DNA from: an uncultured Streptomycetaceae bacterium
Lineage (GTDB): Bacteria; Pseudomonadota; Gammaproteobacteria; Burkholderiales; SG8-41
Assembly: GCA_964621335.1 (NCBI GenBank)
Contig: CAZULX010000442.1
Span: 1-28,508, forward strand
Reading direction: 5' to 3'
DNA: 28,508 nucleotides
The position numbers and the translations under genes are program-made. Numbering within the stretch: the stretch's first letter is position 1; each line of letters begins with the position of its first letter. Below, piece by piece: positions 16,017-17,021 of this stretch. The notes under the pieces are model-generated. The model saw only the letters and a list, made by a program, of their open reading frames with translations, was not told the origin of the DNA and made no database searches.

Positions 16017-17021
16017 TCAGGGCGTGTACGCGTCATAGCCTTCGTAACACGGCGGCTCCGTACCCGATGTCGCCGTAGTGCCCGCCTCCACCGTCCAGCC
16101 TTTAGCCGCAGCCACCGTCTGCACGCCGGTGACGGCGGTATTGAGCACCGCCTGGCCGGCGGCAAAAGGTCTACTGCTCGCGTTGTCGGCCAGCTTCATC
16201 CAGTAACTGCGCGCTGCCGCCTTGAACGACGTGATCTTGGCGTCGGCTGTCGACTTCATCGCCGTCGCAGCGCTCGCGCCATCGCCGTGGCTCGCAAGGG
16301 GCGTCGTCAGCGCATGGATCGCGGGGCCGGCGATGGCCCAGTAATGGTCCGCCGAGCATTTCCACTCACGGTAATGATGATCTTCGTGCACCTCCGATGC
16401 GTTTTTGGTGTGCCATGCGCCGCGCGAGCCGCGGCCGTAATACCCTTTCATCACCGTCACGGCTTGTTGGGCCTCGGCTTCGGTCGTCGGCGGGTTCGAA
16501 GTCGGATCGCGCGACCCGCCTGTCTTGATCTTGATGTCGACTCCGCCGGTGATCGAGCTCACCCGCATGCGCCAGACGTTTGCGCTCCTGTCCTGTGTCG
16601 CGGTATACGTCGGCACAAAAGCCTTCTCGATCGTTGTAGAGGAGCCGTTGGTGGCGACGCTCGCCGAATTCGCTGCACCCCAGCCAATCGAAGGAACAGG
16701 AGCTGCTGCAGGTGCCGCCGCCGGCACTGGAGCGGGCGGCGAAGCGGGAACCGGATTACCGGGCGGCGCCACTCCCGGCACGGCAGCGGGCGATGCACCG
16801 GCACCGACTTCACCTTTGACGTTTTCGTCGAGGTCATCGTCGAATGCCGCTTCGCCCTTGAACAGCGGCACGTCGGCGTAGCCGCGGCTGCGCATCGTCG
16901 CACCGGCGCCGCCGCTGCGCCCCACTTCGGAAGTGTGGGAGCGCGGGGCACGCGATCTCGGCAGTGCCAGCGGCCGCTGTGTACTGGGCAGTTGCTTCTT
17001 CAGCGTCATGTCGTGCTTCAT
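16017..17021 (-). CDS. Putative eCIS cargo: disordered leader, Pro/Ala linker and HExxH zinc-peptidase-like domain
   Basis: Likely start ATG 17021 (or 17009), after the stop of the upstream gene at 17059; the tracked start at 17573 overlaps the upstream gene. HEDHH motif at 16374-16388. Confidence 0.7.
   Translation of the reverse strand: MKHDMTLKKQLPSTQRPLALPRSRAPRSHTSEVGRSGGAGATMRSRGYADVPLFKGEAAFDDDLDENVKGEVGAGASPAAVPGVAPPGNPVPASPPAPVPAAAPAAAPVPSIGWGAANSASVATNGSSTTIEKAFVPTYTATQDRSANVWRMRVSSITGGVDIKIKTGGSRDPTSNPPTTEAEAQQAVTVMKGYYGRGSRGAWHTKNASEVHEDHHYREWKCSADHYWAIAGPAIHALTTPLASHGDGASAATAMKSTADAKITSFKAAARSYWMKLADNASSRPFAAGQAVLNTAVTGVQTVAAAKGWTVEAGTTATSGTEPPCYEGYDAYTP

Follow-up and report, generated by a model that had tools for sequence, protein, structure and literature searches.

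A putative metallohydrolase cargo of an extracellular contractile injection system and its inhibitor-like partner

In a 28,508-nucleotide stretch of bacterial DNA (hereinafter the window), one gene codes for a protein that we interpret, with slightly better than even confidence, as a putative metallohydrolase from a family not yet described, probably with peptidase activity, which would be loaded into an extracellular contractile injection system (eCIS) and accompanied by a candidate cognate inhibitor or immunity protein. The most fitting description is that of a new family of toxin domains, recruited as eCIS cargo and accompanied by a cognate inhibitor-like partner. The sequence-only reading of the same gene had proposed a tube-loaded HExxH protease toxin with a disordered leader; new relative to it are the two-gene module with the inhibitor-like partner and the Sec-secreted use of the domain outside eCIS.

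Operon setting and N-terminal architecture

The candidate effector CDS (16017..17021) lies on the minus strand and codes for 334 amino acids plus a stop. Its minus-strand translation agrees residue for residue with the leader, acidic patch, linker and domain described earlier, and a plus-strand reading of the interval was ruled out as its translation lacks these features. The ATG at 17021 fits as the start because the preceding gene stops at 17059 and the closest homologs likewise begin with MK.

All the genes described here are on the minus strand and, by their Pfam matches, constitute an eCIS operon with transcription proceeding in the order of descending coordinates. The contractile apparatus is represented by the eCIS sheath (24741..26336), the gp19 tube (24178-24702), two genes devoid of Pfam matches, and the Pvc16_N cap (~21403-23169). 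These are followed by a Pvc15-like AAA+ ATPase with WHD and AAA domains (19445..21811; PF00004, PF22977), which is the presumed cargo loader, and a 713-aa DUF4157/eCIS_core protein (17059..19200; PF13699 at residues 67-143, E 1e-28). Thus, the eCIS setting posited earlier stands: the ATPase is two genes upstream of the target and the DUF4157 protein directly upstream of it. The target itself is placed between these two genes and those for the baseplate. Downstream of the target and its 140-aa partner come a CIS_tube-family protein (14917..15582; PF19266), a 379-aa gene lacking a Pfam match (13394-14533), a spike OB-domain protein (12885-13397), gp25 (12188-12841), two Baseplate_J proteins (9627-12191 and 6976-9630), a 722-aa tail protein with weak matches (4811-6979), and a 1072-aa protein combining DUF6519 with a right-handed β-helix (1573-4791). 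This distal protein, which probably serves as a fiber or in receptor binding, might give a clue to the organism that is targeted. The sheath gene is closely preceded by that for a sigma-54-dependent activator (26853-27857) with an AAA+ domain and a Fis-type HTH, a possible regulator of the system.

The 713-aa DUF4157 protein is probably a second cargo or an accessory factor. Its C-terminal ~560 residues (~150-713; 17059-18750) match no family beyond a sub-threshold hit to Porin_4 and probably constitute the effector domain of a second cargo. This protein opens with LLQRACACG...C..C, and the QRxCxCG motif likewise opens the leaders of many homologs of the target (P0017, P0020, P0027, P0039, P0054, P0055); the target's own leader is free of it. 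In some of the leaders lacking DUF4157, the first motif of that domain survives as the relic FGxDFSxV (set of 78; E 1e-6 to 0.009).

The gene order around the CIS_tube gene is shared with L001, L002 and L005, and the eCIS setting near a DUF4157 gene and an AAA ATPase is conserved in these loci as well as in L006 and L011. The module is also found inside eCIS loci of Mesorhizobium, Brachymonas, Acidobacteria and Dehalococcoidales, with a Brachymonas MAG providing the closest genome locus. Within the window, the stop codon of the partner gene and the start codon of the CIS_tube gene share an ATGA (15579-15582), indicating that the target-partner pair is translationally coupled into the structural operon. 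This coupling to a tube-like gene, the embedding of the pair amid the structural genes, and its position next after the ATPase in Mesorhizobium and Brachymonas raise the alternative that the target is an accessory or structural eCIS component, such as an assembly, maturation or lysis/release factor, rather than an injected toxin. However, the same module occurs on Sec-secreted proteins with no eCIS genes nearby (L009, L010, L021, L024, L027), is placed at the operon end after different genes in L003 and L011, and belongs to a family far rarer than the eCIS core genes (217 clusters at 50% identity in an exhaustive profile search) with polymorphic N-termini. We consider an accessory role highly improbable and return to the reading of the target as a loaded toxin.

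The N-terminus of the target has the properties expected from the earlier description. Residues 1-55 (16857..17021) form a basic, R/S/P/L/A-rich leader with a net charge of +8, pLDDT values of 34-63 in the AlphaFold2 model, and a maximum Kyte-Doolittle(15) hydropathy of ~0. With no hydrophobic segment by this measure, the target lacks a Sec signal, as had been noted. The leader is followed by an acidic segment, residues 56-72 (GEAAFDDDLDENVKGEV; 16806..16856), with a net charge of -6, and by a linker, residues 73-110 (16692..16805), in which 26 of the 38 residues are Pro or Ala; both elements had been recognized before. In the model built from a 33-sequence alignment, pLDDT is below 50 across most of residues 11-76, and altogether ~110 N-terminal residues are predicted to be disordered, which bears out the unstructured N-terminus.

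Cargo loading in AlgoCIS proceeds via an AAA+ protein and depends on a disordered N-terminal domain, with DUF4157 being dispensable (bioRxiv 10.64898/2026.05.27.728243). By analogy, we propose that the leader is a putative loading signal that would direct the unfolded protein to the Pvc15-like AAA+ ATPase and from there into the lumen of the tube. The acidic segment conforms to a conserved K-x-EAAF-acidic-K-x-E motif, which is kept in eCIS-type relatives regardless of their N-terminus and missing from those of the Sec/Ig type; a strict regular expression for it matches 39 of 87 N-termini, every one of them eCIS-type. In eCIS-type relatives, it separates the linker from the preceding leader or DUF4157 part, and could be a processing or recognition site. 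The linker position, too, is variable: in many relatives (including P0020, P0021, P0023, P0027, P0032, P0039 and P0044; alignment columns ~520-590) it is replaced by a ~40-aa glycine-zipper stretch matching Pfam Gly-zipper_YMGG or Gly-zipper_Omp, which suggests a membrane-active segment in those proteins.

A conserved HExxH domain of an unnamed family

A word-seeded search recovered 58 relatives, to all of which the C-terminal ~220 residues are common, with several bearing PF13699 at their N-terminus. The presence or adjacency of DUF4157 marks eCIS toxins (PMC8213781, PMC11297309). The PF13699 (DUF4157/eCIS_core) profile does not match the target itself, even at an E-value of 10. However, among 104 close relatives, 11 have the domain fused behind DUF4157 (Pfam eCIS_core), which agrees with the cargo role suggested by the first reading. 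The domain is C-terminal in ~90 of these 104 proteins and, together with the DUF4157 fusions, this position points to the modularity typical of toxins. Several of the 104 also match glycine-zipper families in Pfam, and the N-termini are polymorphic across the domain family. In distant relatives, the domain is part of large proteins that also contain Glucodextran_B, Big, CarboxypepD_reg, dockerin and TSP3 modules. We predict that this C-terminal domain, residues 111-334 in the target (224 aa; 16020..16691, minus strand), is the toxic part of the protein.

As claimed earlier, the domain contains an HExxH motif, namely HEDHH at residues 212-216 (16374..16388, minus strand). By itself such a motif says little, since chance alone would place one HExxH in ~1% of proteins of the target's composition; it is its conservation that counts. 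H212, E213 and H216 are invariant in 140 of 140 aligned relatives (97 close and 43 distant), and hence the motif is not a chance occurrence, and the scenario of its loss in homologs, which had been named as a way in which the earlier proposal might fail, does not apply. In the AlphaFold2 model, the domain has a pLDDT above 95 (33-sequence alignment) and shows a six-strand β-subdomain (112-166) succeeded by a helical bundle with helices at 181-197, 206-236, 248-276 and 284-307. The HExxH motif lies within the helix 206-236 at a pLDDT of ~97, which places it on a helix as anticipated.

Beyond the motif, W150, W203 and W309 are nearly invariant in close and distant relatives, and further invariant residues are H204, Y273, W274, D279 and the segment P285 to Q290. 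W203 and H204 are at the start of the helix 206-236, Y273, W274 and D279 at the end of the helix 248-276, and P285-Q290 at the start of the helix 284-307. Going by the order of secondary structure elements, these residues would share one end of the bundle with H212 and H216 if the helices run up-down-up. Conservation nominates E/D219, D279 and E/H236 as candidates for a third metal ligand: position 219 is E in 96% of the close relatives and D or E in 86% of the distant ones; D279 is kept in 100% and 79% of them, respectively; and position 236 is E in 64% and 72%. Position 286 is Y in 87% of the close and 98% of the distant relatives. The target departs from the consensus at two of these conserved positions, having H at 236 and F at 286, and this counts against the interpretation favored here. 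The C-terminal tail with the signature (T/S)EPPCY(Q/E)PW (residues ~308-334; 16020-16100, minus strand) contains a nearly invariant Cys325, and the model docks it with confidence (pLDDT 86-93). The tail is limited to the close family, with distant relatives ending at W309, and might possibly act as a latch or contribute a metal ligand.

The earlier statement that the family cannot be named holds: searches with the target, its parts and the partner gave no match in Pfam (E up to 10), NCBIfam, PHROGs or PADLOC; PDB sequence searches with single sequences and profiles of the target and the partner returned nothing meaningful; and ten distant representatives are all hypothetical or unnamed proteins. 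A comparison of the domain model by Foldseek against the PDB (best E 0.96) and BFVD (best E 0.7), the two collections covered, yielded no match and, in particular, no zincin; this is the structural check that had been suggested with the earlier proposal. Two specific affinities were considered and rejected. The domain is not a diverged second DUF4157, as hhalign gave a probability of 1.4% and aligned only seven residues around the motif. Nor does it belong to the aspzincins (M35, AsaP1-like), a possibility prompted by a structural match of the partner (see below), for the GTxDxxYG motif is absent and there is no Pfam M35 match. Thus, in spite of a conserved HExxH motif on a helix, the evidence does not support placing the domain in any known zincin family.

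Given the motif, our proposal for the domain is a metal-dependent hydrolase, with a peptidase as the likeliest kind, from a family lacking both a name and a solved relative. Alternatively, the domain might be a metal-dependent hydrolase of a non-protein substrate, i.e., peptidoglycan or another glycan, a lipid or a nucleic acid, while still being a paired eCIS cargo. The lack of a zincin fold match is in line with this, as is the unusually large number of invariant Trp and Tyr residues near the active site (W150, W203, W220, W228, W274, W309, Y194, Y227, Y273). This aromatic conservation, taken with the Glucodextran_B, CarboxypepD_reg and dockerin modules of the carriers, would fit a glycan-acting enzyme too, and the distant relatives in question are large surface proteins. 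Against it, an H-E-x-x-H whose Glu never varies is the arrangement classically seen in peptidases, the partner is more like protease inhibitors and propeptides than like known immunity proteins for cell-wall enzymes, and the eCIS-type partners are cytoplasmic, where they would be pointless as protection against a cell-wall enzyme. We regard a non-protein substrate as unlikely and prefer the peptidase assignment.

The downstream partner and its compartment

The gene immediately downstream of the target (15579..16001, minus strand) codes for a 140-aa protein that, by its pairing and fold, is a putative cognate inhibitor or immunity protein. A homolog of it was found directly 3′ of the HExxH gene in all 11 loci first collected, and an HMM scan of 33 loci and the window detected it in 28 of the 28 loci with at least ~450 bp of downstream sequence. 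The pairing spans Proteobacteria, Acidobacteriota and Chloroflexota, and one locus, L010, carries the partner twice in tandem. By profile search, the partner family comprises 103 clusters, all of small stand-alone proteins and none with a fusion to a known peptidase.

The AlphaFold2 model of the partner is an all-β, eight-strand β-sandwich with a mean pLDDT of 84. Its best Foldseek matches in the PDB are the proenzyme of the AsaP1 zinc-metalloendopeptidase (2x3c, 2x3a, 2x3b; E 5e-5 to 1e-4, TMq 0.53-0.57, ~20% identity), with the Bacillus subtilis intracellular proteinase inhibitor BsuPI (3isy, E 2e-4) as the second-best match; the TM-scores are moderate throughout (0.42-0.57), and β-sandwich folds are of a kind that matches many things. 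The AsaP1 match should lie on the β-rich prodomain, given that the query is all-β and in view of the literature on this enzyme. The AsaP1 prodomain acts as both a chaperone and an inhibitor of its protease, reportedly performing the latter role by blocking the active site. The invariant motifs of the partner family, FxPLPVFF and G-x-G-K, map to the least confident loops of the model, as would be expected of binding loops.

We posit that the β-sandwich partner keeps the enzyme inactive and/or helps it fold in the producer cytoplasm, acting like a detached protease propeptide or inhibitor and serving in effect as an immunity protein. A cytoplasmic antidote would further imply that the enzyme can damage cytoplasmic components, which favors proteins over the cell wall as its substrate. 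A competing view of the partner, which we rate as rather improbable, is that of a steric chaperone, a propeptide in trans comparable to the lipase foldases, which the HExxH domain would require for its folding or stability and which would perhaps aid the hand-over to the ATPase, and not an immunity protein. The best structural match being a protease proenzyme whose prodomain is both chaperone and inhibitor would suit this, as would the strict 1:1 pairing and the N-terminal anchoring of Sec-type partners, which is reminiscent of the Lif foldases; but the second-best match is a true inhibitor, and immunity genes typically show tandem duplication of the kind seen in L010. A protein could also fill both roles at once.

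A more far-reaching reading, which we offer tentatively as a possibility short of an even chance, is that the domain represents the founding member of a metallohydrolase fold without a solved relative and, with its partner, a self-contained enzyme plus trans-propeptide cassette that can be plugged into either of two unrelated export routes, the eCIS tube or Sec. The flexible G-x-G-K loop of the partner might then insert into the active site, mimicking a substrate, and the conserved C-terminal PPCY tail of the enzyme might function as a latch resembling a cysteine switch.

Outside eCIS, the same two-gene module occurs with the HExxH domain terminating a large carrier equipped with a Sec signal and an Ig-like module, both in Pyrinomonadaceae and in a number of metagenome loci. 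In all 6 distinct loci of the Sec/Ig type (L009, L010, L021, L024, L027, L028), the partner bears a signal peptide or a membrane anchor; it has neither in at least 12 distinct loci of the leader or DUF4157 type, including the window, where an upstream extension of the partner gene is impossible. Likewise, of the partner clusters, 33 carry a hydrophobic segment at the N-terminus (median length 173 aa), whereas no such segment is present in 63 (median length 142 aa). Thus, the export signal of the partner tracks the type of toxin, which fits a protein that meets the enzyme where the latter first folds and is unlike the behavior of a structural eCIS part or of an eCIS-specific loading adaptor. 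Indeed, the 140-aa gene was rejected as a core structural eCIS gene, as it accompanies the toxin in loci without eCIS, where it acquires an export signal.

Two of the Sec-type loci show additional features. In L010 (6682-8094, 8249-10189), the two tandem partner genes are followed by a second large ORF, which repeats the carrier region of the toxin gene and has a different end, and L009 (7406-8524) has a similar downstream ORF. These arrangements look like arrays in the style of polymorphic toxins.

Relation to known systems

The nearest counterparts of the target are the eCIS-associated toxins (EATs) and the AlgoCIS cargos Cgo1/Cgo2 (Geller 2021, PMC8213781; Danov 2024, PMC11297309; Xu 2022, PMC8894135), with which it shares the eCIS operon, a nearby DUF4157 gene and Pvc15-like ATPase, and the combination of a disordered N-terminus with a variable C-terminal effector domain. 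As in the EATs, the domain is found behind DUF4157, albeit in relatives of the target and not in the target, which has no DUF4157 of its own. The target further differs from them in that its C-terminal domain matches no described EAT domain and in having a strictly conserved downstream partner, whereas most of the tested EATs have no recognizable immunity gene.

The resemblance to the zincins (gluzincins, metzincins and aspzincins) lies in the invariant H-E-x-x-H on a long helix after a β-sheet subdomain and a helix, and in the acidic and Tyr positions conserved near the motif in the family (E219, D279, Y286). In contrast to these, the target has neither GTxDxxYG nor HExxHxxGxxH and no sequence or fold match to them, and its order of sheet, helix and active-site helix is atypical. 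A precedent is offered by T6EC12, a recently reported type VI effector whose HExxH motif is on a scaffold unlike those of known metalloproteases and whose motif mutants lose toxicity (bioRxiv 10.64898/2026.09.28.754971). Compared by description only, the two are alike in being toxins of contractile systems (a predicted one in the case of the target) with a conserved HExxH on an unfamiliar scaffold, and the T6EC12 immunity protein is predicted to occlude the site, but T6EC12 belongs to a type VI system and its motif context is different (HELSH, D312, E341).

With the AsaP1 prodomain, BsuPI and the staphopain/staphostatin and AprA/AprI pairs, the module shares a small β-rich protein encoded beside the enzyme and present in the compartment where the enzyme first folds; of these, AsaP1 and BsuPI are the closest in fold to the partner. 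However, the partner has no detectable sequence similarity to any of them and, unlike the N-terminal prodomain of AsaP1, is a putative inhibitor specified by a separate gene. Finally, the combination of a toxin domain on varied N-termini (eCIS leader, DUF4157, or Sec with Ig-like modules) with a directly following immunity-like gene, present in tandem in some cases, recalls the polymorphic toxins (Zhang et al. 2012), although the domain is not a catalogued Tox-MPTase or any other Pfam toxin domain.

Most predicted eCIS toxins lack a recognizable effector domain. The present case offers a defined catalytic candidate in the form of three invariant residues, an obligate partner as a candidate for neutralization, and natural controls in the same cassette on Sec with an exported partner. 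If our interpretation is right, it would add one new family each of metallohydrolases and inhibitors, and supply a compact pair of leader and cargo with which eCIS loading could be studied or engineered. Even if the enzyme is not a peptidase, the pairing rule still marks a mobile toxin/antidote cassette in soil Proteobacteria, Acidobacteriota and Chloroflexota. As for the occurrence of the module in environmental samples, no RNA run is among the matches listed for sequences near-identical to 15579-17021, and DNA near-identical to this interval is present in at least 20 metagenome runs from soil, sediment and caves across 13 studies, with 15-93% of the sampled 31-mers being recovered.
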